Positions 1,659 through 59,077 of a DNA stretch of 64,000 nucleotides are shown piece after piece. Both the position numbers and the translations under genes were made by a program. This stretch comes from a virus (Duplodnaviria > Heunggongvirae > Uroviricota > Caudoviricetes), in IMG/VR virus record IMGVR_UViG_2778260992_000001. One strand, 5' to 3'. The notes beneath the pieces are model-generated. The model was not told the DNA's origin and ran no database searches. It saw only the letters and a list, made by a program, of their open reading frames with translations. Within the stretch, counting starts at the first letter, position 1. The number at the start of each line of letters is the position of its first letter.

Positions 1659-2039
1659 AGACTTTATGGCCTCAACAACCTTTTGTGATGCGCCTTTCTC
1701 TTTACCGAATCGCTCGTTATATGCAGCAAGAACCTGTTTTTCATCCTCGTTAAGAGGAGCGGTGCCTTCTTTGTATAAAAATGCTGCGAGTTCAGGTTGG
1801 CGTTCTTCCAGCACCATCATCATAAGACGACTTGGCTCAATACCCAGCGCCAGCGCCAGCGGACGAACCTTATCGATAGGCAAAGGAATTTTGCCACTTT
1901 TAATTAAAGAAAGGTTGTTGGCATTTTTATAACCAATAAGTCTGGCTATTTGGGCCTGACTCATAGGTGAGGATTCAATCAGCCCTGCGATAAAAGCAGC
2001 ATAGCGACTTTCTATAAATTCAATCTTGTTGTCAGACAT
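1653..2039 (-). CDS. XRE-family helix-turn-helix transcriptional regulator (candidate repressor)
   Basis: 128 aa; HTH segment SQAQIARLIGYKNANNLSLIKSGK; divergent from a small ORF. Confidence 0.65.
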   Translation of the reverse strand: MSDNKIEFIESRYAAFIAGLIESSPMSQAQIARLIGYKNANNLSLIKSGKIPLPIDKVRPLALALGIEPSRLMMMVLEERQPELAAFLYKEGTAPLNEDEKQVLAAYNERFGKEKGASQKVVEAIKSL

Positions 2040-2070
2040 TGTTACAACCTTTGCGCGTTTAATTCTCTCT

Positions 2071-2084
2071 GGTAAGTGCTTACC
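2071..2084. promoter_or_regulatory. perfect palindrome GGTAAGTGCTTACC in XRE regulator promoter region (class-2 operator family)
   Basis: About 30 bp upstream of the XRE start; same core recurs in about 12 other intergenic regions. Confidence 0.5.
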
Positions 2085-2290
2085 GATATTACATCAAAGG
2101 TTAGGGTTGTAAAGCTATTATCATTTTTTTCGGCAGGCACTTGTAAGACCGAGCAAAGGTCCATGCATGGAGAAAAACTAGCCCAAATTAGGTAAGAAAA
2201 TTAACTTGCATCTGATATGGATGTATTCAGTATTGATACATATTTTAGTAGTATTCCTTACCATAGTATAAGTTAGAATGGATTGATTGA

Positions 2291-2503
2291 ATGAAAACCA
2301 CTATTTCCAGCCTAATCGCTCTTGAGATCGGACACGTACAGAAATTAGCTGATGAGTGTGTAGCTGACATCCTCACCGATCTACCGAATGAGCAGATTCA
2401 GGTTGGTGTGAATGACACAACTGGCTTTATATTCGAACTTAACAACAAACGCTTCACGCTTCTCAATACCGGCTCCGGGTCTTTAGCCGTCAGAATCTGT
2501 TAA
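2291..2503 (+). CDS. hypothetical small protein (Cro-like position, divergent from XRE regulator)
   Basis: 70-aa ORF; position only, no recognisable motif. Confidence 0.4.
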   Translation: MKTTISSLIALEIGHVQKLADECVADILTDLPNEQIQVGVNDTTGFIFELNNKRFTLLNTGSGSLAVRIC

Positions 2504-2601
2504 CCCCTCTTCTCCCTGCGCGAATGGCTTAGTTCCCTGTTCGCGCAGTGCTACATTAAACACACTAGTAAATAATTTGTTTTCATAACAAAGGATTAGC
2601 C

Positions 2602-4710
2602 ATGTCTAAAAAACGTTCCATCAAAGAGGTTCAGGACTTCCGTGACAGTGTAAAACGAGTAGTCGCTCTCCTTTCAGGTAAAAACATCCCTGTTGCAGAA
2701 CGAGGGGACGACGCTTATGTACGCTATAACGATGATGGAGAGCCAATTCTCGTAAACATCCCATCAATCCCGGATAACGCAACACCGGCATTGATGAATG
2801 CTGTGCGCGGATTTCTCGATCATGAGGTTGCTCACATTTTGTTTACCGATATTCGTGTGTCCAACAAAATGAAAGAAAAAGGACGCGTTCCTTCCTGGTC
2901 GCTATGGAATGCCTTAGAAGACGTGTTCATCGAGCGAAAAATGGGTCAGGTCTTTAACGGAACAAGACGTAATCTGATGGCAACTCAGCGCCTTATAATC
3001 GAAAAAGTCTTTAAACCAAAGGCTTCAGAGGCTATTGCTTATTGTGGCAAAGATCAGCGCGCGCTTTTTCTAAACTTCTTTCTCTGTCCGGTTGTAAGAG
3101 CCTGGGATGGCCAAGCACCGTTCGTAGATTTCATGGATGAATATTGGCCTGTCATTGAGAAACCAATTTCATTATTAAAAGAACATGGTATCGATGTGGC
3201 CGTGCGTAACATGTCTTGCACCGAGGATTGTGTAAAGGTGGCTGCGACCATAGCTAAGATCCTCAAAGACACTGAAAGTGAAAGCAAAGGTAAGGAGTCA
3301 GCTCCGGGAAAAACTTCCGATCCTTCAGACGCTGACCAGACGGATGCCTCTGGAGAAAACAATGAAGACAACGAAGATCATGAGACACCCTCATTGTTAG
3401 ATAACCACAAATCTATCAAATCAGAATCACACAGTAACCACAAACATGATAATAACAACAGTGATGATTCAGATAATTCTGAATCATCAGAAACAATATT
3501 CGATGATACAGAAAATGATAAAGAGGTATCAGATTCTGATGCTTCTGATAACGCGGCGTCAGAATCATTAACCGCTGACCACGAAAAAAGAAAAACGACA
3601 GAAGACGGCTCTTCAGATATTCCAACTCCGTCAAAAATGAGTCTGGAAGAGGCTTTAGAGGAGCTGGATAGCATAGAAGATGAAGTCGGAGGCATGACAG
3701 AAGATGCTCTATCCGAAACGATTAAAAGCGAGTTAACAGAAAGCTCGAAAAGTGAATACAGGCCATACAATCGCTCATACGACTTCATCGGCTCGATTGA
3801 TCAGGCAGAAGCCCATATCAAACGGCTTATTAAAACATTCTCCGATATTGATTTAGGAGGATATCCAATCAGCCGCTATCGCATCGTTCCTGAAGGCAAC
3901 CAGCTCTTCGACAAATATATTGAAAAGCATCTTTCGTCAGGTGTTTCGTCGACGCTGGCAAAAGACCTGGAGCGAGCAATAGCAAGCAGAAACAGAGTTC
4001 AGTTTATACCGGGCCAGCGTCGGGGGCGCATTCATGGTTCTAGTATCTACAGATTAGCAATGAATGATGATCGCGTGTTTCGTAAAAAAGAAGAATCTAA
4101 AGCCGTTAATGCCTGTGTTCAACAAGTGATTGATTTATCAGGTTCAATGAGTGGTATAACGATACAATTGGCTCTTGCAAGTGCATATACCATCGCCGAT
4201 GCCCTTGATCGAATAAATGTTCCCAACATTATCACCGGCTTCACTACATTTGGTAGTCATATGGCGGCAGGAGAACTTAAGGCTGTCAAGTATGAGTTCT
4301 CTCGCTTTGAATCTTTAATGCTACCTATCATCAAAAATTGGAATGAAAAGGTAAATTCTCGCGAAGTTCGCTCACGTATGGGGTGCGTAGGCTACACATT
4401 CCCACTTCTTAATAACGTGGATGGTGAAAGCATAGCCAGCCTTGCATCGTTATTTTCCGGTCGCATGGAGGACAGGAAGATCATGCTTGTTCTGAGTGAT
4501 GGCGCGCCGTGGGCTGTTGGGAGAGGGTTTGACGCTCATTTGCGTTCGGTTGCGAAACAAATTGAAACGCAGACTGACATTGATTTGATGGCAATTGGCA
4601 TCATGACTGACGCACCGGAGAGATTTTACTCAAATCATGCCCTGGTAACGAGCGTTGATAGTCTTGGTTCATCTGTAGTTACTGAACTATCTCGTATCAT
4701 TTTGAAGTGA
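2602..4710 (+). CDS. CobT-like von Willebrand factor A (vWA) domain protein
   Basis: 702 aa; long acidic Ser/Asp/Glu-rich central region; C-terminal MIDAS motif DLSGSMSG; paired with downstream AAA+ ATPase. Confidence 0.7.
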   Translation: MSKKRSIKEVQDFRDSVKRVVALLSGKNIPVAERGDDAYVRYNDDGEPILVNIPSIPDNATPALMNAVRGFLDHEVAHILFTDIRVSNKMKEKGRVPSWSLWNALEDVFIERKMGQVFNGTRRNLMATQRLIIEKVFKPKASEAIAYCGKDQRALFLNFFLCPVVRAWDGQAPFVDFMDEYWPVIEKPISLLKEHGIDVAVRNMSCTEDCVKVAATIAKILKDTESESKGKESAPGKTSDPSDADQTDASGENNEDNEDHETPSLLDNHKSIKSESHSNHKHDNNNSDDSDNSESSETIFDDTENDKEVSDSDASDNAASESLTADHEKRKTTEDGSSDIPTPSKMSLEEALEELDSIEDEVGGMTEDALSETIKSELTESSKSEYRPYNRSYDFIGSIDQAEAHIKRLIKTFSDIDLGGYPISRYRIVPEGNQLFDKYIEKHLSSGVSSTLAKDLERAIASRNRVQFIPGQRRGRIHGSSIYRLAMNDDRVFRKKEESKAVNACVQQVIDLSGSMSGITIQLALASAYTIADALDRINVPNIITGFTTFGSHMAAGELKAVKYEFSRFESLMLPIIKNWNEKVNSREVRSRMGCVGYTFPLLNNVDGESIASLASLFSGRMEDRKIMLVLSDGAPWAVGRGFDAHLRSVAKQIETQTDIDLMAIGIMTDAPERFYSNHALVTSVDSLGSSVVTELSRIILK

Positions 4711-9918: not shown

Positions 9919-10767
9919 TCAATATTTAACAAATATTTCATTAAGCCTAGGGTTAACTTGGTCGTATTTATCTATGTCGTCTTTTAAAACTGAATGACAT
10001 TTGACACCAATTTCAAATGCTATCAATATCGAATTTATATATTGATTATAGCATTCAATCAAAGATTTAATATCAGATGATAGTTGTATCAACCGTGGAT
10101 TGACTCTAAGAGCACTAATAACCTTATCATACTTGTTAAGCAACCCATTCAATTCATTAGCAAAATTATATGGATAACCATTTTGGTATGTATTTTCATC
10201 ATCAGCAGGACCTAAATAATCACCAATGCACTTAAGTTTATTCTTAATGAATACAGCATCTTCAGTGGCATCTATATCATTTTTCGTTAAGAAAAGTTCT
10301 ATCCACTTGTTCTTGTCCGACTCTTTCAAAAGGTTATTTTCTTTATCAAAAGTAATACAATAGCTATCACTTTTTTTCTCGTTGGAAATACTAATCATTT
10401 CCGCCAACTCGTCTTTACCTAAATGTTTCCAAAATATTACAGGGAGACCGTTGTCGTTTAGAAAAACGCGAACAATGACAATCGGATCATTAATACTTTG
10501 CCAATAAATTAAATTTTTAATAGGTACAGAAACTCTTAGTGAATCATCGATTTTTTTACTTGTTGTTTTAACTTGAACTCCAATAAACATACCTGTTGAA
10601 TGACAGTTGTCATCATAAATCTCAACCTGAGCATCCAACCCCATGTCAATATCAAGAATTCGGCAAGGCCATACAAATTTATTTGAAATCCAATATGCGA
10701 AATAAAACTCACCAGCATTTCCGTTAGCAACTCTTTCGATATATCTCATGCCCTGATCGTTTGCCAC
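9919..10767 (-). CDS. hypothetical protein, putative PD-(D/E)xK-type nuclease (DUF4365-like N-terminus)
   Basis: 282 aa; markedly AT-rich and on the opposite strand to all neighbours; N-terminal GNAGEF ... DIDMGLD ... QVEI ... VQVK pattern recalls DUF4365 from memory. Confidence 0.4.
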   Translation of the reverse strand: MANDQGMRYIERVANGNAGEFYFAYWISNKFVWPCRILDIDMGLDAQVEIYDDNCHSTGMFIGVQVKTTSKKIDDSLRVSVPIKNLIYWQSINDPIVIVRVFLNDNGLPVIFWKHLGKDELAEMISISNEKKSDSYCITFDKENNLLKESDKNKWIELFLTKNDIDATEDAVFIKNKLKCIGDYLGPADDENTYQNGYPYNFANELNGLLNKYDKVISALRVNPRLIQLSSDIKSLIECYNQYINSILIAFEIGVKCHSVLKDDIDKYDQVNPRLNEIFVKY

Positions 10768-10921
10768 TTCCGTATCCCTTGTTAAGTTATCACTGGAGCA
10801 CTTTAGAGAACACTTTGATAATTAACAAGTTGCAGCCTAGTGGATAGACAAAGGCTATTGTTTGATGTAACACCAGATAGTCATATAATTGATATATAGA
10901 AATAAGTAACAGGATACATTT

Positions 10922-11353
10922 ATGAACGCCGATATTTACGAGAAAATAATGTCTGATCTCGAGTTTGACCGAGACAATCTGGAAGACGTCTGGCGTAGAC
11001 AACCTCGCCTGTTGATGGAGTATGGTTCAAAGCTCGCCCATGCAGAAAGAAGTGTCGCAGAGGCAAAACTTAACCTTGAAGCTGTTGAAGCAAAGCTATA
11101 CGACACAGAGCGTAAGAACTTGAGTATGAACGGCATTAAGTTCAACGAATCTGTACTAGACGCTAAGGTTAAAACAAACCCACAGTATCTATCTAAACGG
11201 CAGAAGTTGGATGAAGCACGGCACATCGCAGACATATACAAACATGCTGTCGCCGCCTTTTCGCATCGCCGAGACATGATCGTTCAGGCGTCGAAGATGG
11301 CCATTGTTGAATTAGAGCGATTAGGCTCTGAACGCTTTATCACTCCCCGTTGA
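10922..11353 (+). CDS. hypothetical protein (possibly UvsY-like recombination mediator)
   Basis: 143 aa, helical; size and position next to SSB/recombinase genes; weak resemblance only. Confidence 0.3.
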   Translation: MNADIYEKIMSDLEFDRDNLEDVWRRQPRLLMEYGSKLAHAERSVAEAKLNLEAVEAKLYDTERKNLSMNGIKFNESVLDAKVKTNPQYLSKRQKLDEARHIADIYKHAVAAFSHRRDMIVQASKMAIVELERLGSERFITPR

Positions 11354-17631: not shown

Positions 17632-18164
17632 ACCGCTGACAGCATACACAATCAATTACCGCTGATAGCATATCGAGAGTTTATCTCACCGCTCACAGCA
17701 TACTTTACTCGATTTTTTACCGCTGACAGCATACTTAAGACATTGCATGAATAATGTGTACCGGTATGGGTATAACCAGAACAAAATTACCGCTGGCAGC
17801 ATACGAAGGTCTGACATATACCATTAATTACCGCTGATAGCATATCCAAACAAAAATTCCTCAATAAAACACCGCTGACAGCATACGTTCTATCAGGGAG
17901 CAGCAGGCAATAAATGCCTTTCACTACAAGCAATCAGCGCAACGGCAATAGAATGTTAGTGAGCGCAAACCTATATGGAATGCACTCTTCGAGGTTAGTA
18001 ACCACTGGGGAGGTATGCCAGAGCATTGAGTGGTGATAGATGATTTACCGCTCACAGCATACGTTTATCTCACTATACCGCTGGTAGCATATCTTTAACC
18101 GTTCACAGCATACTTTTCAGAAAAATAGCCGCTGATAGCATACATTTCACCGCTGACAGCATAT
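17632..18164. repeat. incA-like iteron array (12 copies of ACCGCTGACAGCATAC and variants)
   Basis: 16-bp direct repeats at irregular 25-45 bp spacing downstream of repA, as in P1 incA. Confidence 0.8.
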
Positions 18165-19258
18165 CAAAGCAGTTTGAGACTATTGGAAAGGATCTCAATC
18201 ATCTTGATATTTTCAGGCGTCAAATTCTGCGAAAGTTCGGTTATCTTGTTGATAATGTTCTGTTTGGCATCAATTTCCCCAGCTTTCTCATCTGGTTTTT
18301 TGGGTTCGATGTCTTCAGGTTTTGGCGGTGCGACTTTGAGTTTTGGATTGCGGCTGTGAATCTGGATATAGATCGACCGCCCACGCTTAATCTCGCTGTA
18401 TTCGAGATAGCCCAAATCTTGGAGAGCTTTTAATCCGTTACGTATAGTCTGATTCTGCGAGCTGACATTCCTGCTACTCAAATTGAGTCGCGCACGCAAT
18501 CGAGCAAGCGATACCGGCGCAGGCTTGGTTGGAAGACTTTCGATGAAGGTGTACAGAGCCTGTGCTGTTTCTTTGCGTGGTAGCTTATTGATAACCTTTA
18601 ACTGCAAAAGAACCTTATGGTCAAAGCGATATAGTTCGGCCAGCTTCGGTTCTGCATAGAACACCACCGTATCTTTCTGCTCGTTGTAGTCCACGCTATT
18701 GATGAGGTGCACCATCAGAAGCGAGATCTTGTTAGAGCCGTCGACGTTCTTTTCTTCATACGTTCTCTGGAAAGACAGAGTTGTACGCATGATCTTCAAA
18801 AGACTGTTTGTAAGCCGGTCGCGGAGTGTTTTGCGGATCTGTGACGATGGATAGCCACAAAACTTCGCAAATTTCGTGATGCTTAACTCGACACGACCAT
18901 TAGGTTCGCCGTATTCTGCCAGCGAACGCACAACGCCCACCCACGTTTTGAAATCATGATCCATGTCCAGGCGAGGACCGGTTATCTTGATATCGGAATA
19001 GCCTTCAGAACGGGCTACTTCGAGCTGGACAAGCTCCTTTGAAGCATCGATCTCATTTGGCTTGTTACGTTTACTGTATTTTGTTCCCTTAAGCGTGGGG
19101 ACGAACAACCCCAGTCGCATCAACGCAATTGGTTGGACTGTATTGTTGCTATTAGGGACAAGTTCCCCTGTGTACAATTCAAGGGAACCTTCTTCAAAGT
19201 TGTCGATGTTATCTTCTACTTCTTTGTTATTTTTACCTTTTTTATTTTTTGTGGACAT
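18164..19258 (-). CDS. repA: plasmid replication initiator RepA (P1 RepA-like)
   Basis: Blocks NSNNTVQPIALMRLGLFVP, EGYSDIKITGPRLDMDHDFKTW, AQALYTFIESLP and IQIHSRNPKLK closely match P1 RepA as remembered; start set at MSTKNK because the upstream track extension runs over the iterons. Confidence 0.85.
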   Translation of the reverse strand: MSTKNKKGKNNKEVEDNIDNFEEGSLELYTGELVPNSNNTVQPIALMRLGLFVPTLKGTKYSKRNKPNEIDASKELVQLEVARSEGYSDIKITGPRLDMDHDFKTWVGVVRSLAEYGEPNGRVELSITKFAKFCGYPSSQIRKTLRDRLTNSLLKIMRTTLSFQRTYEEKNVDGSNKISLLMVHLINSVDYNEQKDTVVFYAEPKLAELYRFDHKVLLQLKVINKLPRKETAQALYTFIESLPTKPAPVSLARLRARLNLSSRNVSSQNQTIRNGLKALQDLGYLEYSEIKRGRSIYIQIHSRNPKLKVAPPKPEDIEPKKPDEKAGEIDAKQNIINKITELSQNLTPENIKMIEILSNSLKLL

Positions 19259-19278
19259 GTGGACACCTTTGTCATTCA

Positions 19279-19380
19279 ACCGCTGACAGCATACTTGATT
19301 TGCCGCTGACAGAATACCAAAAACAGTTGGCAGCATACGGTGAACCGCTGACAGACTATCAATTACCGCTGACAGCATAC
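19279..19380. repeat. origin iterons (about 5 copies of ACCGCTGACAGCATAC family) upstream of repA
   Basis: Same repeat as the downstream array, between repA start and the GATC cluster. Confidence 0.8.
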
Positions 19381-42911: not shown

Positions 42912-43030
42912 ACGCTACAAATCCTTCGGCATGAATAAATAAAGGCCATAAGTTGTGGCCTTAAATAAATTGTTTTCTACATTTTCTTATTTGTGAAAAT
43001 AACCACAACTAGAAAACAACGGAGTTAAGA

Positions 43031-47485: not shown

Positions 47486-47505
47486 TACTGTATGCATATA
47501 CAGTA
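47486..47505. promoter_or_regulatory. LexA (SOS) box
   Basis: TACTGTATGCATATACAGTA, perfect CTGT-N8-ACAG palindrome 17 bp upstream of the umuD-like start. Confidence 0.75.
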
Positions 47506-47521: not shown

Positions 47522-47911
47522 ATGGGCTTCCCTTCTCCTGCGGCGGATTATGCTGAGAGCCGTATTTCTCTTGATCAGCAGATAATTAGACATCCTTCAG
47601 CGACCTACTTCATGAGGGCAGCTGATAGTCATCATCGTGAGGGAATATTACAGGGTGCATTGCTGGTGGTCGATTCCTCACTTACCCCGGTTGATGGTTC
47701 TCTGCTTGTATGCGCTCTGGATGGGGAATATCGCGTAAAAAGATACCGGAAGTATCCACGTCAGCATCTGGAGGATTTAAGAACCGGTAAGAAGGAAGCA
47801 TTGCCAAAGGATGACGATGGATGCACGGGCAGCAATGCCGTGTTTGGTGTGATCACTCACATTATCAACGACGCAAGAAGTGGCGAGTTTGATGATTGTC
47901 CCGTGATGTAG
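47522..47911 (+). CDS. UmuD-prime-like SOS mutagenesis protein (P1 HumD-like; S24 LexA-type fold)
   Basis: GFPSPAADYAESRI ... HPSATYF ... VDGEYRVKR aligns with the UmuD C-terminal domain but lacks the N-terminal arm; 129 aa; LexA box upstream; no umuC partner adjacent. Confidence 0.7.
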   Translation: MGFPSPAADYAESRISLDQQIIRHPSATYFMRAADSHHREGILQGALLVVDSSLTPVDGSLLVCALDGEYRVKRYRKYPRQHLEDLRTGKKEALPKDDDGCTGSNAVFGVITHIINDARSGEFDDCPVM

Positions 47912-47923
47912 GAGAACTGATTA

Positions 47924-47948
47924 GGCGGTGCAATGCACCGCCTTTTTA
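47924..47948 (+). terminator. rho-independent terminator after umuD-like gene
   Basis: GGCGGTGC-aat-GCACCGCC followed by TTTTT. Confidence 0.65.
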
Positions 47949-49049
47949 TCACACTGCGCGGAATGCGATTTCGCCAGGTATTACTTCACCTTGCCAATAC
48001 ATTTGGGCAGCAACGCGATCTGCGAGGTCACGATAAATAGCCGTAAATTCGCTATCTGGACGACTAATAACGGTTGGTGTTCCGTTATCCAGATCTTCAC
48101 GAAGAGAGATATGAAGTGGCATTTGGCCTAACAACTGCGTGTTGTATTTCTCGGCCAGTTTCTGTGCGCCACCGGTGCCAAAAATTGGCTCGTGATGACC
48201 GCAGTTACTGCAAATATGCACACTCATGTTTTCAACGATACCCAGTACCGGCACTTCGACTTTTTCGAACATCACAATGCCTTTCTTCGCATCGATCAGC
48301 GCGATGTCTTGCGGCGTAGTTACCACAACCGCACCAGTTACAGGAATGTTCTGCGCCAGCGTCAACTGAATATCACCAGTGCCCGGCGGCATATCGAGAA
48401 CGAGATAGTCCAGATCAGGCCACAGTGTTTCCTGCAACATCTGCATCAGCGCCTTGCTGGCCATCGGTCCACGCCACACCATTGCATTGTCGTCGGTGAC
48501 CAGATAACCAATAGAGTTGGTTGCCAGGCCATGAGACATGATAGGTGCCATGTGAGTACCGTCAGGTGAGGTTGGACGTTGGTTTTCCGAGCCCAGCATG
48601 GTTGGAATTGATGGACCATAGATATCGGCATCCAAAATACCAACTTTCGCACCTTCAGCAGCCAACGCCAGTGCCAGGTTTACCGCCGTGGAGGATTTAC
48701 CCACGCCGCCCTTGCCTGAGCTGACGGCGATAATGTTCTTCACGCCATTAATGCCTGGTTGGTTTTTGACGCGCTTAAGCGTGGCAATGTTGTACGACAG
48801 CTTCCAGTCAATAGCCTTTGCGCCAGTGATACGGAGCAGATCACCACTACATTGCTCTTTCAGGTCTTCAAAAGGCTTATTCCACACGAAAGGCATGATT
48901 AGTTCGACATGCAGTGTGTCATCCATCAACGCAACATGGTGTAACGCTTTAAGCGTAGTCAGGTTGTGTTTCAGGGTTGGGTGCTGAAAATTAGCCAGCG
49001 TACCGGCTACCATTGCTCTCAGGGCATCCGGCGATTTGGACTCGCTCAT
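47949..49049 (-). CDS. mrp: iron-sulfur cluster carrier ATPase Mrp/ApbC (host-type)
   Basis: Near-identical to enterobacterial Mrp over its length as remembered (ALRAMVAGTLANFQHPTLKHNL ... SSGKGGVGKSS ... CSNCGHHEPIFG). Confidence 0.9.
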   Translation of the reverse strand: MSESKSPDALRAMVAGTLANFQHPTLKHNLTTLKALHHVALMDDTLHVELIMPFVWNKPFEDLKEQCSGDLLRITGAKAIDWKLSYNIATLKRVKNQPGINGVKNIIAVSSGKGGVGKSSTAVNLALALAAEGAKVGILDADIYGPSIPTMLGSENQRPTSPDGTHMAPIMSHGLATNSIGYLVTDDNAMVWRGPMASKALMQMLQETLWPDLDYLVLDMPPGTGDIQLTLAQNIPVTGAVVVTTPQDIALIDAKKGIVMFEKVEVPVLGIVENMSVHICSNCGHHEPIFGTGGAQKLAEKYNTQLLGQMPLHISLREDLDNGTPTVISRPDSEFTAIYRDLADRVAAQMYWQGEVIPGEIAFRAV

Positions 49050-49206
49050 CCCGTCTCCTTTATTTTAATTTGCGCAATTGTCGCCTTGTAGTGTACTCCA
49101 GCTACGACATTTAATCATTTATGAGAAATGCTGTTATCACATGGCAGACATAAGGCCATTTTGTTACTATCAAGCCCCTTTTCACTACAAAGAAGTAATG
49201 CCTACT

Positions 49207-51240
49207 ATGACCCAAGTCGCGAAGAAAATTCTGGTGACGTGCGCGCTGCCGTACGCTAACGGCTCAATCCACCTCGGCCATATGCTGGAGCACATCCAGG
49301 CTGATGTCTGGGTTCGTTACCAGCGAATGCGCGGCCACGAGGTTAATTTCATCTGTGCCGACGATGCCCACGGTACGCCGATCATGCTGAAAGCACAGCA
49401 GCTTGGTATCACACCGGAACAGATGATTGGCGAAATGAGTCAGGAACACCAGACTGATTTTGCAGGCTTTAACATCAGCTATGACAACTATCACTCGACG
49501 CACAGCGAAGAGAACCGTCAGTTGTCCGAGCTTATCTATACTCGCCTGAAAGAGAACGGTTTTATTAAAAACCGCACCATCTCTCAGCTGTACGATCCGG
49601 AAAAAGGCATGTTCCTGCCGGACCGTTTTGTGAAAGGCACCTGCCCGAAATGTAAAGCACCGGATCAATACGGCGATAACTGTGAAGTCTGCGGCGCTAC
49701 TTACAGCCCGACTGAACTGATCGAGCCGAAATCGGTAGTTTCTGGTGCTACGCCGGTAATGCGTGATTCCGAACACTTCTTCTTTGATCTGCCTTCTTTC
49801 AGCGAAATGTTGCAGGCATGGACCCGCAGCGGTGCGTTGCAGGAGCAGGTGGCAAACAAAATGCAGGAGTGGTTTGAATCTGGCCTGCAACAGTGGGATA
49901 TCTCCCGCGATGCGCCGTACTTCGGTTTTGAAATTCCGAACGCACCGGGCAAATATTTCTACGTCTGGCTGGACGCGCCGATTGGCTACATGGGTTCCTT
50001 CAAGAATCTGTGCGACAAACGCGGCGACACTACCAGCTTCGACGAATACTGGAAGAAAGACTCCACCGCCGAGCTGTACCACTTCATCGGTAAAGATATC
50101 GTTTACTTCCACAGCCTGTTCTGGCCTGCCATGCTGGAAGGCAGCAATTTCCGCAAGCCGACCAACCTGTTTGTTCATGGCTATGTGACGGTGAACGGTG
50201 CGAAGATGTCCAAGTCTCGCGGCACCTTTATTAAAGCCAGCACCTGGCTGAATCATTTTGACGCTGACAGCCTGCGTTACTACTACACTGCGAAACTCTC
50301 TTCGCGCATTGATGATATCGATCTCAACCTGGAGGATTTCGTTCAGCGCGTGAATGCCGATATCGTGAACAAAGTGGTTAACCTGGCCTCCCGTAATGCA
50401 GGCTTTATCAACAAGCGTTTTGACGGCGTGCTGGCAAGCGAACTGGCTGACCCGCAACTGTACAAAACCTTTACTGATGCTGCTGAAGTGATTGGTGAAG
50501 CATGGGAAAGCCGCGAATTTGGTAAAGCGATTCGTGAAATCATGGCGCTGGCTGATCTGGCTAACCGCTATGTCGATGAACAGGCTCCGTGGGTGGTGGC
50601 GAAGCAGGAAGGGCGCGATGCCGATCTGCAGGCGATTTGCTCTATGGGCATTAACCTGTTCCGCGTGCTGATGACGTACCTGAAACCGGTACTGCCGAAA
50701 CTGACTGAACGTGCAGAAGCATTCCTGAATACAGAACTGACCTGGGATGGTATCCAGCAACCGCTGCTGGGCCATAAAGTGAATCCGTTCAAGGCACTGT
50801 ATAACCGCATCGACATGAAGCAGGTTGAAGCACTGGTGGAAGCATCCAAAGAGGAAGTAAAAGCCGCTGCCGCGCCAGTAACTGGCCCACTGGCAGATGA
50901 TCCGATTCAGGAAACCATCACCTTTGACGACTTCGCCAAAGTTGACCTGCGCGTGGCTCTGATTGAAAACGCGGAGTTTGTCGAAGGTTCTGACAAACTG
51001 CTTCGCCTGACGCTGGATCTCGGTGGCGAAAAACGTAATGTCTTCTCCGGCATTCGTTCCGCTTATCCAGATCCACAGGCACTGATTGGTCGTCACACCA
51101 TTATGGTGGCCAACCTGGCTCCGCGTAAAATGCGCTTCGGTATCTCCGAAGGCATGGTGATGGCTGCTGGCCCCGGCGGGAAAGATATCTTCCTGTTAAG
51201 CCCGGATGCTGGTGCTAAACCAGGCCACCAGGTTAAGTAA
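49207..51240 (+). CDS. metG: methionyl-tRNA synthetase (host-type)
   Basis: [26 protein letters not shown] (HIGH) and KMSKS motifs; essentially the E. coli-type MetG sequence; start set at MTQVAKK, 43 codons inside the track ORF. Confidence 0.95.
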
Positions 51241-51323
51241 TTAAGCAACCATTCTTCACAATGCCCGGCAATACGCTGGGCATTTTCATTTAGACACAAT
51301 CCCTTCTGATTTACACATACCCT

Positions 51324-51338
51324 AAAACAATTTGTTTT
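51324..51338. promoter_or_regulatory. class-1 palindromic element AAAACAATTTGTTTT (first of a tandem pair)
   Basis: First element-type motif after the metG stop; second copy GAAAACAACTTGTTTT at about 51374-51389. Confidence 0.5.
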
Positions 51339-51401
51339 CTGCCTTTTGTTGATTGAGATAATAAACCACATAAGAAAACAACTTGTTTTGGAGTGGTTTA
51401 A

Positions 51402-51701
51402 ATGTTGAACATTACCCAAGCCTACCAGGTGGCATTGATCAGCTCATCTCATACATCAGAGGAAGATGCTCGCCGATTCATGATCGCAAGCAATGAGCTG
51501 GATTGGGTTTCACAAATTGAGTACGGTTGCATTGTCCACGCCGGGTTACAGGATGATGTCTGGAAAGACAACTTGCGTCGATATGGTATATCCGAGGGCG
51601 CGATTTCGAACATTCAGAAGGTACTTGATGTAGGCTTCGACTCTGTACATTTCGATTGTGGCGCACCGGTCGTTGAAGGGCTTGAGTGCTGGCAATGGTA
51701 A
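51402..51701 (+). CDS. hypothetical protein
   Basis: 99-aa ORF with class-1 elements upstream. Confidence 0.5.
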   Translation: MLNITQAYQVALISSSHTSEEDARRFMIASNELDWVSQIEYGCIVHAGLQDDVWKDNLRRYGISEGAISNIQKVLDVGFDSVHFDCGAPVVEGLECWQW

Positions 51702-52645: not shown

Positions 52646-52759
52646 CGGTTGCAACTTATTGATAATGGCGGTCACAATTTGATTCTTTTCTATAAGAATC
52701 CGTTGATCGCCACTACTCCCCTTCCATACCTGCAATCATACCCTTAAATATCAATAGGT

Positions 52760-53560
52760 TATGGTTGTTTATACAAATAAGAAAACAACTAAATAACAGA
52801 TCAACGAAACGTCAACGCTTTCACCCGATTTGGTCTAAAAAATTGACGTTTTCACACATCACTTCTTATACCCGTAACTCTACGCAGCAGACAGCGCCAC
52901 AGCGTCCAATTTTCACCACAGACGACCCAACACACTACCAACAAAAACACACGCTCAAAATCGCTCCCGTTGCGTTACGCAACCATATAAACAACTTATT
53001 TTCAGGCATAACAAAACAACTAAATAACACACATGCCATTCCCAAAAACAACCAACCTCTTTATGGCAGGCTACCGAAAAGACCCACCTCTTCTCCCCAG
53101 GCTACCGGACAACCAACCTAACTTTCACAGGCAATCCGAAAACATTCATACGCGCGATACCCACGACACGCCATTACCCAAACAGCGAAGAAATACCAGA
53201 CTCACTGAAACCCCAACGAAGCCTGTTACCGCAAGGATTCTCTCAATCCCAAAAGACACGAAACAGAACAATCACGGGAAACGCCATTACCCAATACACG
53301 AATAACTACAAAAGCCTTTCAGGCACTCCAGACAAACAACTCAAACACAATAACGAAAGCAATCGCCCACCTGCCATTACTCCATACACGGAGAAGAACA
53401 ATCACCAAAACGACGAGAACACCCCATAGAAGAACCACCGCAAAACGAACGAAACCACATACACCGACAGAGAAAACAACACACCCAATTCACCAACAGA
53501 AATAGTCGCCGTATAGGACATTCTGGAAGGAGTGAGCATTAACGCCTATAGAGAGGTTGA
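52760..53560 (+). repeat. strongly strand-asymmetric A+C-rich, G/T-poor tract with degenerate internal repeats (candidate ncRNA or Rho-loading region)
   Basis: By eye about three-quarters or more A+C on the + strand over about 0.75 kb; repeated GCCATTACCCAA and AAAACAACTAAATAACA units; putative -35 TTGACG (52843-52848) and -10-like at 52866-52871; track ORFs here are low-complexity. Confidence 0.5.
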
Positions 53561-53618
53561 GACAGATAAAACACAACATGTATAGCGAAGAAGCCAGGTA
53601 TGTATAAGTGGGGATGGA

Positions 53619-53645
53619 AGGAGGGGTGTCGCCTCCTTTTTCGTA
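53619..53645 (+). terminator. rho-independent terminator closing the A+C-rich tract
   Basis: AGGAGG-ggtgtcg-CCTCCT followed by TTTTCGTATTT. Confidence 0.6.
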
Positions 53646-53699
53646 TTTATTCAACTCCTGATTTTATCCCCCGTAACACCCCTACGGTCAGCCTTCGGT

Positions 53700-53840
53700 C
53701 CATACAGGGGAAAGGCTGCATCCCGCTACAGAAACGGCTGGGTTGCCTTTGGGAACGGCTGGAGGTTTTCAGGGAAACGGTCGAGTTGCCTGTGTGGATT
53801 TCGGGAAAAGGCTCGATGCCGGTTCAGGAACGGTGGCGTA
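53700..53840. repeat. cluster of GRAAACGGC repeats (copy 1)
   Basis: GGGAAAGGCTG, AGAAACGGCTGG, GGGAACGGCTGG, GGGAAACGGTCG, GGGAAAAGGCTCG, GGAACGGTGG within about 140 bp. Confidence 0.55.
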
Positions 53841-54167
53841 CCGGTATAGCGAGAGGGAGAGTTGCGGCTACCCACCTGTAATGTGCGGGAAGAAGAGAGG
53901 CGCTCACGTAGGCGGACTTGCTTACCGCTGGATTCCCTCTGAATGCCCAGCTACAGCGTAATTGTGCCAGACAGCCAACGGGTCACAATCGATTTCAGTA
54001 GGTTTTTGGGGAGAGGATTACTCTGCCACCAGCCACTTTCGGCCACTAAATCAGAATAATGTAAAAAGTGTACTCGGTACTGAACCTGAAAACTCACTGC
54101 CAAAACCACATTCACCGGAACAAAATCCTTTTTCGCCTGTGCGTTATTGCGATAATAACACCATCAA

Positions 54168-54182
54168 GAAAACATGTTGTTT
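54168..54182. promoter_or_regulatory. class-1 element GAAAACATGTTGTTT with extended -10-like TGCGATAAT upstream
   Basis: CGATAAT-ACACCA-CAAGAAAACA block conserved with the 56.3 and 56.8 kb copies. Confidence 0.5.
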
Positions 54183-54194
54183 AAGGATTGCTTT

Positions 54195-54524
54195 ATGTTT
54201 ACAAATATCGACATCAACCAAATCAAGAAATTAACTCAAAAAGAGTTTGATCAGTTTTATGAGTTAGAAGGTTGGTCTTCCACTCTGATCAATTCAAGAT
54301 GGGTGCTGGAACTGATGACTCGTGATGACGCACCTGCTTTGATGATCAGCGACCTGGGTGAAGATGCTGACTTTATGGATATGAGCGAATTTTGTGTGGA
54401 CACATACAACCGCAGCCAGAAGTACTACTTCACATGCGATAGCGAAAATGACGTGATTTCTAAGGTCTATCTTCACCTCGTCCAGCATTGGGACGTTCAG
54501 GAGTTTCTTGAAGTATTCGAGTAA
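54195..54524 (+). CDS. hypothetical small acidic protein
   Basis: 109 aa, Asp/Glu-rich; start at ATG after AAGGA RBS. Confidence 0.5.
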   Translation: MFTNIDINQIKKLTQKEFDQFYELEGWSSTLINSRWVLELMTRDDAPALMISDLGEDADFMDMSEFCVDTYNRSQKYYFTCDSENDVISKVYLHLVQHWDVQEFLEVFE

Positions 54525-55550: not shown

Positions 55551-55557
55551 GCCCGAT

Positions 55558-55570
55558 AACAATTTGTTTT
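55558..55570. promoter_or_regulatory. class-1 palindromic element AACAATTTGTTTT
   Basis: Same AACAATTTGTTTTCTGCC block as at 51.3 kb. Confidence 0.5.
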
Positions 55571-55628
55571 CTGCCTTATCTGATTTGTGAAAATGATTTC
55601 ACTGAAGCAACTTAATAAGGAAACCATC

Positions 55629-56178: not shown

Positions 56179-56304
56179 AAATGACTTTTAATAACCGAAG
56201 GTTAGTTTGAAACCTGGCTATCAACTTCCATAACCTTTCTTGTGTATTCAGCCTGTATTAACTTCTTTTATGCCTTATCTACACTGCGATAATTACACCA
56301 ACAA

Positions 56305-56319
56305 GAAAACAACATGTTT
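56305..56319. promoter_or_regulatory. class-1 element GAAAACAACATGTTT with upstream TGCGATAAT
   Basis: Conserved promoter block. Confidence 0.5.
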
Positions 56320-56624: not shown

Positions 56625-56648
56625 TAAGGCCACCAGCATTGGTGGCCT
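56625..56648 (+). terminator. hairpin AAGGCCACCAGCATTGGTGGCCTT (repeat copy 2)
   Basis: Perfect stem; duplicate of the 56155 hairpin. Confidence 0.5.
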
Positions 56649-56789
56649 TAAATGACTATCTTGTTTCCCGCAGGCTAAAAACACCAACCTCTTACCTCCA
56701 GGCAACCGACAAACCCACCTGTTCCCGTCCGGCTACCGTAACTTTCCACTTTGACGCCTTATTCGTACAACGATAATTAACACCAACAA

Positions 56790-56803
56790 GAAAACAATTT
56801 GTT
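56790..56803. promoter_or_regulatory. class-1 element GAAAACAATTTGTT with upstream CGATAAT
   Basis: Conserved promoter block. Confidence 0.5.
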
Positions 56804-56824
56804 ATTTACGATAAGGAATTAATC

Positions 56825-57307
56825 ATGAATTTTATCGCTACTGTAAACGCACCCGCACATGGCAATATCGCTGTAACGTTCTCTGACATTGAAAAACGAG
56901 TACTTGGTGCATGGCGCGACAATGAGACGGTAGAACTGTCAGCACAAGAAAAATGCATTATTGCACGCGACATCATTGGCAATCGTCGTTACTCGCGGGT
57001 ATTTGAAAAAGCGTATGTGGTAAATTCTGGATTCGGAACGTTCGTCTTTCCGGTGCGCTCCGGGCGATTCTGCCAGTCCAAGCTGATTGAGTTCGCTACG
57101 CAGATTTCTGTCTGGATTAAAACTCAATCGTCGTTCAAATTTTCCGACGATGAAGCAGTATCGCAGGGGATGCGGATCGCCAACAATGCAATTAAATGCA
57201 AAAACATTACGTATACCGCTGGCGTTGATACATGGAAACTGTTTTGCGCTAACTTTATGCTGAATGTATACGCAAGCAACCGCATCCACATCCTTGATGG
57301 CGTGTAA
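56825..57307 (+). CDS. hypothetical protein
   Basis: 160-aa ORF; terminator hairpin GGGCC-agaaac-GGCCC downstream. Confidence 0.5.
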   Translation: MNFIATVNAPAHGNIAVTFSDIEKRVLGAWRDNETVELSAQEKCIIARDIIGNRRYSRVFEKAYVVNSGFGTFVFPVRSGRFCQSKLIEFATQISVWIKTQSSFKFSDDEAVSQGMRIANNAIKCKNITYTAGVDTWKLFCANFMLNVYASNRIHILDGV

Positions 57308-57314
57308 CTGAGAA

Positions 57315-57500
57315 GAGGGCCAGAAACGGCCCTTTCTCTATAGCCACCAGCTGCCGCAGGGAAATTTTCAGAAACGGCGAGGAACGTATTCATGAGCCGA
57401 CGGGAAACGGCCAGGATTTTTTCGGGAAACGGCTGCATTCGCCTTTATGTAGAAAAAACATCGGGAAGCTGGTGGAATCCAACCAGCGGTTGTCGGACAG
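57315..57500. repeat. cluster of GRAAACGGC repeats (copy 2)
   Basis: CAGAAACGGCCC, CAGAAACGGCGAGG, GGGAAACGGCCAGG, GGGAAACGGCTGC, GGGAAGCTGG; TTCTCTATAGCC also shared with the 54.55 kb region. Confidence 0.55.
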
Positions 57501-57894
57501 GTGAGCGGGGAAAATTATGATGACTTTCGTCACCTGAGACATCCAGATTTCTTTCGTAGCATAATCACATACGTGATTAAGTGGTGTGATTATGTGAAAA
57601 ATCACGCGCACATAATACGCGAGCGGATACAGAACAAAACAAAATGCCGATCCGCACCGACAAATAAACGCGGATCACATAGCAAGACTAAAAGCCAATG
57701 ATTAACCATACTCTATAGCGCAATATAACGCGTTTTAAGCGCGTTAATGTGTTAAGTAATGGGTATGTACTGGCAAGGATATAAAAGCGCGTCTATGGCG
57801 TTATTTTGGTGCTTATTTTTATGTTGTTGGAGTGAGTTAAAGACAATAAAAAACGCGCCATTGATGGCGCGTTATTGTGGAAGTATTGGAAACG

Positions 57895-57930
57895 AAAAAA
57901 GCGCCCATAGTGGGCGCTCGATTTTATTTA
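57895..57930 (-). terminator. terminator hairpin GCGCCCATAGTGGGCGC flanked by A- and T-tracts
   Basis: Perfect 7-bp stem; A6 upstream and T-rich downstream on + strand, so it can act for the minus-strand cassette; duplicate at 58397-58413; related ACGCGCCATTGATGGCGCGT hairpin at 57851-57872. Confidence 0.55.
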
Positions 57931-58154
57931 TGTAAACTGATTTCAAATCCCATTTCTACAAACGCTTTCAGCATTAAAAATATATCAGCGTCGTTCACGT
58001 CTGCTTTTTTTCGCTCCTGGTCGCTCAATAAGTCAATTTTGCGCGTCGTTTCATCTATAAGCTCGACTGCGCGCCCAGCGTAACCAGCGATCCCAGCGAT
58101 GCGATTAACATAATATTCGTTATGGACGTTAACGCCAGCGATAAGAACAAACAT
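57924..58154 (-). CDS. hypothetical small protein (cassette gene 3)
   Basis: 76-aa ORF, last gene of a minus-strand three-gene cassette. Confidence 0.4.
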   Translation of the reverse strand: MFVLIAGVNVHNEYYVNRIAGIAGYAGRAVELIDETTRKIDLLSDQERKKADVNDADIFLMLKAFVEMGFEISLHK

Positions 58155-58174
58155 GATTAAGCTCCTTAAAAAAA

Positions 58175-58378
58175 TTAAATAGAATTTTGAAGTTTTCCAA
58201 TTAATGCGCTTAAACGTAAGTATTCACGTTTGCGCTTGCAATCTCGCTTGCTGTTAAGCAAATCAGAAAACGTAAAATTTAATTGGTCGCGTTGCGCGAT
58301 TAAATCATCGATTAATTCTAGTTTATAAGCGCGATACTTTGCGCGATATTCCGCGCGGATCTTGTCATAGCTGACCAT
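58175..58378 (-). CDS. hypothetical small basic coiled-coil protein (cassette gene 2)
   Basis: 67 aa from MVSYDK with AAGGAG RBS; Lys/Arg-rich; track extension runs into the hairpin and is rejected. Confidence 0.4.
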   Translation of the reverse strand: MVSYDKIRAEYRAKYRAYKLELIDDLIAQRDQLNFTFSDLLNSKRDCKRKREYLRLSALIGKLQNSI

Positions 58379-58426
58379 TTTCAAAGCTCCTTTAAAGCGC
58401 CCATAGTGGGCGCTTGATTCCATTAA

Positions 58427-59077
58427 TTACGCTTTGAAAGCATCAGCTAAATAATTGTAGAAATCATTTTTAATGAAGCGATATTGCTGAGTACCAGCTT
58501 TCGCGCTCCCAGCTCCTTTGACTTTTTCAACAAGTCCAAGACGTTCGCAAAGATTGATCAACTGGTTGGCTTGAGTATAACCAGCGTCCAATTTAATTTC
58601 ACACGCTTTTTTAGCTTCATTCATTAAATCGAAAACAGCGCCATTAGTGAACGTGTCGATCTCGTCGTTAATCATATCGATTAAAGCGAATACACGAGAT
58701 CCAGACATATCAGCGATGGAATAAACGCATTTACCAGATTTAATTGATTTAACCAGATAAACCAGTTTTTCCAGAGAATAACTATTAGTCATTGCATCAC
58801 GGAAAAATACTTCTGGCGCTTGTTTGCTTGCTTTAATCGCATAGTAGAAAACAGAGCATAATTTTTCGTCTTCTACTGCGTTTACGACGTTGTTGATGAA
58901 GTAAGCAAGTTTAGTGGTCGCAGCTTGCATATTTGCTTTGTCTGCTTTAGTGTGCGTACCATTTTTATAATGTTCGTTATATGTTTGAGTTGCCAGATCT
59001 GCTTTTTCGCGCAGTTCATCGGATACAATGGAAGCAGCTTCAATGATGGATTTTTTAGAAATGATAATGTTAGCCAT
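58427..59077 (-). CDS. hypothetical protein (cassette gene 1), possible C-terminal winged-helix
   Basis: 216-aa ORF; sequence style (GCGCG-rich, AT-rich flanks) differs from neighbours. Confidence 0.5.
   Translation of the reverse strand: MANIIISKKSIIEAASIVSDELREKADLATQTYNEHYKNGTHTKADKANMQAATTKLAYFINNVVNAVEDEKLCSVFYYAIKASKQAPEVFFRDAMTNSYSLEKLVYLVKSIKSGKCVYSIADMSGSRVFALIDMINDEIDTFTNGAVFDLMNEAKKACEIKLDAGYTQANQLINLCERLGLVEKVKGAGSAKAGTQQYRFIKNDFYNYLADAFKA

Follow-up and report, generated by a model that had tools for sequence, protein, structure and literature searches.

The stretch of DNA analysed here, 64,000 nucleotides long and referred to as the window, belongs by sequence comparison to a known E. 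coli phage-plasmid of the SSU5/pSLy3 type that carries, as stable cargo, an intact second copy of metG, an essential host gene, together with mrp. The best explanation for this pair, to which we give a probability of about three in four, is that it is a cargo module providing a functional second methionyl-tRNA synthetase (MetRS) and Mrp, that it would act through dosage, and that a single capture was followed by overwriting of metG. Earlier publications already connect phage-plasmid metG cargo with the survival of antibiotics; the finding is real and not new. The exact boundaries and the mrp/metG mosaic described below leave the published basic picture unchanged and supply simple sequence markers.

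Plasmid p1 of E. coli C6 (NZ_CP195946.1; complete, 110 kb) is collinear with window positions 75-58955 at 99.2-99.9% identity, the last segment (56625-58955) being lower at 97.7%. Shared segments of pSLy3, including those around the mrp-metG pair, are 97-98% identical to the window, phages Cyrano, CMS-2020a and PhiR41_1 show a 95-97% nucleotide match, and SSU5 matches patchily at 67-87%. The close relatives Cyrano and PhiR41_1 were deposited as phages. Annotation of a relative places a RepB family initiator at the position equivalent to 18164-19378, putting a plasmid replication module on the molecule. An Rfam scan of the whole window returned no family at the gathering score. Phage-plasmids of the pWPMR2 and pSLy3 group (bioRxiv 10.1101/2025.09.12.675607), found in Shigella sonnei and E. 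coli, share both the backbone family and the mrp-metG cargo with the window, the S. sonnei plasmids that carry the pair being ~109 kb; we see no difference of substance, and the window is another member, which over most of its length reaches 99.9% identity with NZ_CP195946.1. The backbone around the pair is also syntenic with SSU5 and pHCM2, reference members of the supergroup, across a DUF4942 methylase-like gene, an HD-domain gene, the repeated promoter cassettes and downstream small genes, but SSU5, unlike the window, has neither mrp-metG nor humD at the equivalent position.

A sequence-only reading of this DNA had described a divergent mrp-metG pair embedded in element DNA. Open reading frames and full-length Pfam matches bear out an intact pair in this setting, arranged as follows.

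47486-47505, plus strand: LexA (SOS) box-like palindrome TACTGTATGCATATACAGTA (CTGT-N8-ACAG) upstream of the humD-like gene, named by consensus resemblance only
47522-47911, plus strand: humD-like S24 peptidase gene, left neighbour, element DNA (Pfam Peptidase_S24, E 1.6e-9)
47923-47943, no strand assigned: G+C-rich hairpin then a T run, between convergent humD and mrp (terminator scan; 7 G-C pairs out of 9)
47949-49049, minus strand: mrp/apbC, Fe-S cluster carrier P-loop NTPase, 366 aa, intact (Pfam and alignment)
49050-49206, no strand assigned: divergent mrp/metG intergenic region, 157 bp
49207-51240, plus strand: metG, methionyl-tRNA synthetase, 677 aa, intact (Pfam and alignment)
51260-51284, plus strand: hairpin resembling a terminator, 20 bp beyond the metG stop (terminator scan; 6 G-C pairs out of 10, then TTCATTT)
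51321-51382, plus strand: 62-nt promoter/operator-like repeat cassette of family D1, with palindromes at 51325-51337 and 51376-51388
51402-51701, plus strand: DUF5983 gene, right neighbour, element DNA (Pfam PF19419, E 1.3e-11)

The open reading frame list began metG at a TTG codon (49078-51240, plus strand, 720 aa); we rejected this start for the ATG at 49207, which yields the 677-residue protein annotated in the closest records. MetG contains the tRNA-synt_1g domain (PF09334, residues 8-397, E 4.6e-166), Anticodon_3 (PF19303, residues 416-540) and the C-terminal tRNA_bind dimerisation domain (PF01588, residues 581-674), and alignment with the K-12 protein shows that it keeps HLGH (22-25), KMSKS (333-337) and the zinc residues C146, C149, C159 and C162. 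Mrp matches the NUBPL/ParA P-loop NTPase family (PF10609, residues 103-346, E 3.7e-102) and, in the corresponding alignment, keeps the deviant Walker A motif GKGGVGKS (112-119) and C280-x-x-C283. The near-chromosomal identity claimed for the pair holds for the proteins, with 670 of 677 MetG residues (99%) and 345 of 365 Mrp residues identical to K-12, but not for the DNA, which is 88.7% identical to K-12 overall (metG 94.5%, mrp 82.3%, spacer ~66%). Divergence on this scale means that the fragment was not recently copied from the host chromosome.

Comparison with the host chromosome, which had been proposed as a check, also located the edges of the pair: chromosomal homology is confined to 47953-51241 and ends exactly at both stop codons. 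Short-word BLAST of the flanks (47880-47960 and 51231-51330) against 80 enterobacterial loci gave zero matches. Because the flanks lack homology in these 80 loci, the terminators are untraceable to a donor; the hairpin at 47923-47943, probably a bidirectional terminator, has no homology in 80 enterobacterial chromosomes, and that at 51260-51284 has no chromosomal homology. On the left, the flank is confirmed as element DNA by the humD-like gene, whose product is labelled a HumD family protein in NZ_CP195946.1, and by the terminator that follows it. In NZ_CP122497.1 the humD-like gene adjoins other cargo and the pair is absent; the DUF5983 gene occurs in the same record. Tandem Repeats Finder also detects a repeat at the LexA box-like palindrome. 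The D1 cassette at 51321 is the right boundary of the module. It is one of five copies (42959, 51321, 54115, 55553 and 56252), and the homology of pSLy3 to window positions 47932-51393 stops just past it. Element palindromes had been placed on both flanks, on the left up to 47.2 kb. The palindrome AAACAANTTGTTT, with 14 occurrences in the window where 0.43 are expected, does lie just right of the pair (51325 and 51376) and is absent within it, but on the left no copy comes closer than 42963.

It had further been suggested, as an alternative, that the window spans an integration or assembly junction, which would mean an assembly chimera or integration into the chromosome at the mrp-metG locus. 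Only a GC step (0.50-0.52 within the pair versus 0.42-0.45 in the flanks) and the chromosomal nature of the two genes point that way, and we consider the suggestion practically negligible: 148 complete E. coli genomes have the whole 5.5 kb arrangement, with identical junctions, on circular plasmids 100-120 kb in size, identity of the DNA to the E. coli chromosome is only 88.7%, and yehE, yehF and other chromosomal neighbours are absent beside the pair. Of the complete E. coli genomes, ~4% have mrp-metG in a phage-plasmid context, which also occurs in records deposited as phages, and the pair therefore does not mark a junction of either kind. In PLSDB, ~185 plasmids carry it, including plasmids of E. 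albertii and Shigella, and it was also found in E. marmotae. Apart from very large chromosome-like replicons, the PLSDB occurrences are confined to Escherichia/Shigella elements.

Among relatives the slot is variable. SSU5 is without the pair, NZ_CP122497.1 fills the slot with other genes, and in pSLy3, p22AR0322A and pEC16-2 the neighbours differ while the pair is intact. Variable presence and terminator-like hairpins at both ends would suit a phage moron, as would the putative promoters suggested by -10-like blocks. The pair would be a long-established accessory, 'moron'-like cargo of the Escherichia/Shigella (pSLy3/pWPMR2-like) branch of the SSU5 supergroup.

Cargo of this kind could also be a neutral hitch-hiker, brought in by illegitimate recombination and serving no selected function. 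The region is hyper-variable, some relatives contain IS elements, and the element has no evident need of mrp. Both genes are nevertheless under strong purifying selection (dN/dS of 0.004-0.02 for metG and ~0.02 for mrp), and dN/dS is ~0.02 for both also between element copies, whose dS reaches 0.15. Furthermore, both open reading frames are intact in every element copy examined although the neighbours change, and the pair is retained in ~216 E. coli records. We therefore regard a hitch-hiker as very improbable.

The two genes of the module have different evolutionary histories, a point on which the sequence-only reading needs correcting. Synonymous divergence from K-12 is six-fold higher for mrp than for metG (dS 1.56 versus 0.27), against an mrp/metG dS ratio of ~1.6 on chromosomes. 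Neighbour-joining placed element metG inside Escherichia (100/100 bootstraps) and element mrp outside a monophyletic Escherichia (100/100). GC3 of element mrp is 0.526 versus 0.61-0.62 for chromosomal copies, and that of element metG 0.609 versus 0.625. The architecture of the spacer is the 'long' Citrobacter/Salmonella type and not that of E. coli, its Escherichia-like part being limited to 49160-49211 (90-94%). These results suggest that the pair is a mosaic, which may be new, with mrp and most of the spacer derived from outside crown Escherichia and metG from within Escherichia. Among GTDB species, represented by one genome each, no chromosome exceeds 95% protein or ~84% DNA identity to the element mrp. 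A search of 5.8 billion proteins for the mrp donor was uninformative because clusters at 90% lump element and chromosomal Mrp.

Unequal synonymous rates could in principle produce the same pattern: both genes would have been captured together, recently, from one crown-Escherichia donor, and mrp would merely have changed faster through relaxed codon selection and AT-biased amelioration. The lower GC3 of element mrp fits this account, as does its placement in the tree, where its branch, though long, is sister to Escherichia (98/100). The six-fold dS gap between adjacent genes, the non-E. coli spacer and the lack of any rise in mrp dN/dS (0.02) do not, and between element copies mrp is the slower gene (dS 0.069 versus 0.15 for metG), opposite to what faster change in mrp predicts. 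Together with a direct conversion tract in a sister element, these points leave a joint capture unlikely.

That tract is in p22AR0322A, whose mrp and spacer share 99.4% identity with the window but whose metG shares just 95.1%. Within its metG, nucleotides 451-1050 (600 bp) reach 99.7% identity with E. coli chromosomes; the tract is matched at 99% or more by 2083 records, nearly all of them chromosomes. In a maximum chi-square mosaic test of this gene, 0 of 300 permutations scored higher. Because the tract is so close to E. coli chromosomes, it argues for gene conversion, and it is the one clear case in our data. In the window's own metG, the sole possible tract is short (nucleotides 1653-1710, p ~0.02), and E. 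coli chromosomal metG is at most ~95% identical in DNA to the element gene.

A mosaic origin suggests that the cargo has been shaped by recombination with a host gene. The module would derive from a single capture, its source being the chromosome of an enterobacterium outside crown Escherichia. Its metG would later have been overwritten and would still be patched by recombination with host chromosomal metG, and mrp would have been spared, being too divergent (82% identity) to recombine. We lean somewhat towards the view that element metG and the essential chromosomal metG evolve in concert in this way, through an old non-crown capture and then repeated conversion by Escherichia hosts. If so, concerted evolution would explain why plasmid metG is unusually variable, and it would make phage-plasmids a possible shuttle of essential translation-gene alleles between strains and species.

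The sequence-only reading had the captured fragment bring its own intergenic region. This part stands insofar as two -10-like blocks are conserved, by alignment, in Escherichia, Citrobacter and Salmonella chromosomes: a putative element for metG (TGnTACTAT, 49162-49170, plus strand) and one for mrp (TACACT, 49090-49095, minus strand). Recent capture from the host chromosome does not stand. A sigma-70 consensus scan of the spacer gave no promoter-like site at the tool's threshold, and a literature search on the mrp-metG promoter found nothing relevant. Dardel et al. (1990) reportedly described, for E. coli, mrp and metG promoters that diverge and overlap; our reading of the spacer does not draw on this. 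Both genes are probably driven by their own divergent promoters of chromosomal type and closed by their own terminators; having both, they would be expressed in the plasmid state, independently of the repeated phage cassettes. In one relative, an IS insertion lies in the spacer of the pair; two others lie outside the pair.

The module would supply an Mrp/ApbC Fe-S carrier and a second MetRS, and the latter is best explained as fully functional and wild-type-like. All 7 of its differences from K-12 are also found in other chromosomal Escherichia MetRS, and none of the residues in the element copies is unique to them. Plasmid-borne duplicate aminoacyl-tRNA synthetases are known from mupA/IleRS2, a divergent enzyme that confers inhibitor resistance. 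Element metG is likewise a second synthetase gene on a mobile element, but resistance enzymes are divergent whereas the element MetRS is 99% identical to that of the host and has no private residues. An inhibitor-resistant, mupA-like synthetase was ruled out, every difference from K-12 being present in chromosomal Escherichia MetRS. Because MetRS has no element-specific residue, any effect would be one of dosage or expression, scaled by the copy number of the phage-plasmid.

An extra MetRS might instead serve mainly the phage, by charging Met-tRNA and fMet-tRNA in lytic growth or as a decoy or back-up against toxins and inhibitors of MetRS or Met-tRNA that come from the host or a competitor, whether as counter-defence or as mupA-like inhibitor resistance. 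In favour are the strong purifying selection and the many host-type paralogues of housekeeping genes on the element (dnaE, recA, nrdAB, thyA, dfrA51 and grxA), the latter suggesting a self-sufficiency strategy. We find this reading improbable. Without an element-specific residue there is no inhibitor-insensitive variant; the pair lies outside the repeated promoter/operator cassettes, with what appear to be chromosomal-type promoter blocks; SSU5 and other members of the family lack it and are nonetheless viable phages; and a search of the window for tRNA genes, including a tRNA-Met partner, found zero.

The expectation that a second metG copy alters phenotype draws its support from published work, which connects the extra gene with redundancy for the chromosomal one and with tolerance. 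In PMC12452169, which cites Tam et al. (medRxiv 10.1101/2024.10.27.24316207), the phage-plasmid metG of pWPMR2 is linked to a persister sub-population and antimicrobial persistence. In APEC O1, a plasmid copy of metG allows knock-down of chromosomal metG to be tolerated (Rousset et al., bioRxiv 10.1101/2020.05.25.114553). The APEC O1 gene is a near-identical, complementing second copy with SNVs relative to the chromosomal one, and the window likewise carries a second plasmid metG. Few of the PLSDB copies of E. coli metG are closer to K-12, and those are on Mb-scale or 365-kb records; the remainder, ~200 records, is ~90% identical to K-12 and sits on 60-120 kb plasmids, which suggests that the APEC O1 plasmid may belong to the window's family.

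Chromosomal high-persistence alleles concern the same gene and the same claimed class of phenotype, tolerance or persistence. These alleles (delta-ETIT, metG83/87 and a C-terminal frameshift) reduce MetRS function (PMC11004401). They are partial losses of function in a single chromosomal gene, whereas element metG is a wild-type-like extra copy: the sites concerned are wild type (ETIT 569-572, G263, S264 and the full C-terminus), and none of the four alleles checked in the window's MetRS is present, G263S/S264F, delta-ETIT(569-572) and the C-terminal frameshift all being absent. Because published high-persistence phenotypes reflect reduced MetRS function, the sequence gives no account of persistence through an extra copy.

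In epidemic Shigella and E. coli, an infectious element with a second copy of an essential translation enzyme is reported to yield sub-populations that tolerate antibiotics, and recognition of the module in genome scans has surveillance value for this reason. Element-type mrp offers a simple marker. Elements share at least 95% identity in this gene, no E. coli chromosome comes closer to it than 90%, and this gap separates plasmid from chromosomal copies: ~216 E. coli records have element-type mrp at 95% or more, and 5421 chromosomal copies fall at 80-90%, with no intermediates.

An intact, divergent mrp/apbC-metG pair lies inside element DNA, as the sequence-only reading had proposed; open reading frames, Pfam matches and collinearity with plasmids and phages confirm it. 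The features of the pair and its surroundings are:

47486-47505, LexA-box-like palindrome TACTGTATGCATATACAGTA (CTGT-N8-ACAG), about 17 bp upstream of the humD-like gene
47522-47911, humD-like S24 peptidase gene, left neighbour of the pair
47923-47943, terminator-like hairpin after mrp, common to the convergent humD-like gene (terminator scan)
47949-49049, minus strand, mrp/apbC, 366 aa, intact
49207 (ATG) to 51240, plus strand, metG, 677 aa, intact
51260-51284, terminator-like hairpin after metG (terminator scan)
42959-43020, 51321-51382, 54115-54176, 55553-55614 and 56252-56313, promoter/operator-like 62-nt cassettes, each directly upstream of a plus-strand ORF

The mechanical metG reading frame begins with TTG at 49078; the true start is the ATG at 49207, from which the closest public records annotate the canonical 677-aa protein. 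BLASTN against the K-12 locus aligned window 47953-51241 only, from stop codon to stop codon, and yehE and yehF, the K-12 chromosomal neighbours of the pair, are absent beside the element copy. In a short-word search, the 80-100 bp beside the pair had no match in 80 enterobacterial chromosomes. E. coli C6 has a circular plasmid of 109,926 bp that aligns at 99.8% with the entire length of a 5.5-kb query around the pair. Among 5,426 complete genomes of E. coli, 148 carry the whole 5.5 kb, flanks included; the plasmids concerned are about 100-120 kb in size. The pair had been read as either a captured fragment or an integration or assembly junction; these comparative data and the missing yehE and yehF exclude a chimera or junction, and a captured chromosomal-type module stands.

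Window 75-58955 is collinear with the C6 plasmid at 99.2-99.9% (lower, 97.7%, at 56625-58955); genes of that plasmid include those for a RepB initiator, DnaE, RecA, NrdAB, ThyA, DfrA51 and a tyrosine recombinase. The phage-deposited genomes Cyrano, CMS-2020a and PhiR41_1 match the same region at 95-97%, and Salmonella phage SSU5 matches it in patches. By these sequence comparisons, the window belongs to the pSLy3-like branch, from Escherichia and Shigella, of the SSU5 supergroup of phage-plasmids, a group that bioRxiv 10.1101/2025.09.12.675607 describes. Element-type mrp, at 95% identity or above, is found in 216 records from complete E. coli genomes, and the pair is present at 95-99% on about 185 PLSDB plasmids, among them E. 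albertii and Shigella plasmids, and was also found in E. marmotae. Annotation of NZ_CP195946.1 (68000-109926), the C6 plasmid record, shows further host-type housekeeping paralogues in window 1-41000: dnaE, recA, nrdA/nrdB, thymidylate synthase, dfrA51 (annotated as a trimethoprim-resistant DHFR), grxA and a frameshifted rnhA. GC drops sharply at 10001-11000, to 0.335 from about 0.45-0.49 in the surrounding DNA, and GC skew is negative there; the closest record has a DUF4365 gene in opposite orientation near this position, and the stretch may be a separately acquired insert.

The window has 14 sites of the cassette palindrome AAACAANTTGTTT, where 0.43 would be expected, and none of them falls inside the pair. 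Element-specific palindromes had been placed on both sides; they hold on the right, where cassette 51321-51382 adjoins the pair as one of five copies in that part of the element, and not on the left at 47.2 kb, the nearest leftward site being at 42963. SSU5 lacks mrp-metG, and in the E. coli relative NZ_CP122497.1 the slot between humD and the right cassette is filled by DUF4145, HTH and IS genes. In pSLy3, p22AR0322A and pEC16-2 the pair is intact and its left and/or right neighbours differ; pSLy3 homology to the window (47932-51393) begins within the left hairpin and stops just past the right cassette. Intact amid changing neighbours and absent from some relatives, the pair thus behaves like a self-contained unit in an accessory region prone to recombination. 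Junctions between modules of related elements coincide with the 62-nt cassettes, which may double as regulatory sites and recombination joints. The LexA-box-like palindrome suggests that the humD-like gene beside this cargo module could be under SOS control, and SOS control of humD in P1 offers a parallel. Further right, the closest plasmid record annotates no CDS over about 1.5 kb (~52650-54210); 30-31-nt direct repeats at 53045-53141 recur at 56677-56742, AT skew is strong (0.30) at 53-54 kb, and Rfam gave no match.

Pfam domains cover both proteins end to end: class I MetRS catalytic (E 4.6e-166), anticodon-binding and C-terminal tRNA-binding domains in MetRS, and the NUBPL/Mrp P-loop NTPase domain (E 3.7e-102) in Mrp. 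Alignment shows that MetRS retains HLGH (22-25), KMSKS (333-337) and all four zinc-knuckle cysteines, and Mrp its deviant Walker A box and CxxC. All seven MetRS differences from K-12 also occur in chromosomal MetRS of other Escherichia, so the element enzyme has no element-specific residue; an inhibitor-resistant MetRS was ruled out, element copies having no private residues. The four high-persistence lesions studied in PMC11004401 (delta-ETIT 569-572, G263S/S264F, S264F alone and a C-terminal frameshift) are all absent from element metG. Any phenotype must thus reflect dosage or expression and cannot be due to a changed enzyme. dN/dS is low (metG 0.004-0.02, mrp 0.013-0.06), also between element copies, indicating that purifying selection maintains both genes on the element; this, with intact genes across contexts, excludes a neutral hitch-hiker. 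A phage-centred role, in translation supply during lytic growth or in counter-defence, seems to us improbable.

Publications already describe the mrp-metG feature, and public records annotate it. The metG-carrying element pWPMR2, grouped with pSLy3 in the SSU5 supergroup, was found in E. coli CC131, CC23 and CC73 (bioRxiv 10.1101/2025.09.12.675607). As summarised in PMC12452169, Tam et al. (medRxiv 10.1101/2024.10.27.24316207) report that phage-plasmid metG expression yields a sub-population predisposed to acquire cephalosporin resistance. In APEC O1, knock-down of chromosomal metG is possible because an unreported plasmid holds an almost identical copy (Rousset et al., bioRxiv 10.1101/2020.05.25.114553); this amounts to functional evidence for the expression and activity of such a copy. 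Our survey of plasmid metG copies suggests that this plasmid may belong to the same phage-plasmid family as the window.

What remains of interest is the mosaic and gene-conversion history, and the co-retention of mrp with metG. The mosaic nature of the pair may be the new part. Near-chromosomal identity, as first claimed, holds for protein (670 of 677 MetRS and 345 of 365 Mrp residues as in K-12) and fails for DNA.

Divergence of the two genes
DNA identity to K-12: metG 94.5%; mrp 82.3%; spacer ~66%
dS, element vs K-12: metG 0.27; mrp 1.56
dS, K-12 vs E. albertii: metG 0.34; mrp 0.63
dS, K-12 vs Citrobacter werkmanii: metG 0.74; mrp 1.22
GC3, element vs chromosomes: metG 0.609 vs 0.625; mrp 0.526 vs 0.61-0.62
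Neighbour-joining (NJ) tree, metG: element within the Escherichia crown; a clade of Escherichia with the element in 100/100, a clade of Escherichia without it in none
NJ tree, mrp: Escherichia monophyletic without the element (100/100), which forms a long branch and is sister to the genus in 98/100

Across complete E. coli genomes mrp is cleanly bimodal (element at least 95%, chromosomal 80-90%), whereas element metG (95.1-100%) almost touches chromosomal metG (93.9-95.0%). Faster evolution of mrp in a non-mosaic pair is disfavoured, since mrp is the slower of the two genes when element copies are compared with one another (dS 0.07, against 0.15 for metG). The sister element p22AR0322A matches the window at 99.4% over mrp and spacer and at only 95.1% over metG. 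Within that metG, nt 451-1050 alone reaches 99.7% identity with alleles common on E. coli chromosomes. This 600-bp tract (2951-3550 of locus L088, NZ_CP195468.1) matches 2083 records at 99% or above, nearly all chromosomes, and no permutation of 300 exceeded the maximum chi-square mosaicism value, which indicates gene conversion between chromosome and phage-plasmid. The tract is also present at 100% in two further plasmids, NZ_CP031136.1 and NZ_JBSWAS010000002.1. In the window's own metG, the same test picked out no more than one short candidate, nt 1653-1710 (p ~0.02).

The simplest reading of the mosaic has three stages: a single, ancient capture of the pair from a lineage not belonging to crown Escherichia, replacement of metG by an Escherichia allele, and repeated patching of metG since then through gene conversion, with the chromosomal metG of the host as donor. 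On this reading, mrp is too divergent to recombine. In a record titled Enterobacter hormaechei B56 (L006, CP170191.1), mrp-metG has the same identities to the window as that of K-12 and clusters with K-12 in trees, which suggests a mislabelled or contaminated genome; mrp-metG of a 'Salmonella diarizonae' locus (L004, NZ_VXJV01000009.1) groups closer to Citrobacter than to S. enterica.

The 157-bp spacer is of the long Citrobacter/Salmonella type, and only its final 52 bp, beside metG, are Escherichia-like. TGnTACTAT (49162-49170, plus) and TACACT (49090-49095, minus) are among the spacer blocks that all enterobacterial chromosomes share, and are plausible -10 elements of metG and mrp, respectively; a generic sigma-70 scan called no promoter in the spacer, so these assignments stay inferential. 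In pCPF6-IncFIB (locus L092, NZ_CP075739.1), a transposase gene in the same orientation as metG lies inside the spacer (1627-3082, equivalent to window 49050-49206); this insertion would part the metG promoter from that of mrp and might alter how metG is expressed.
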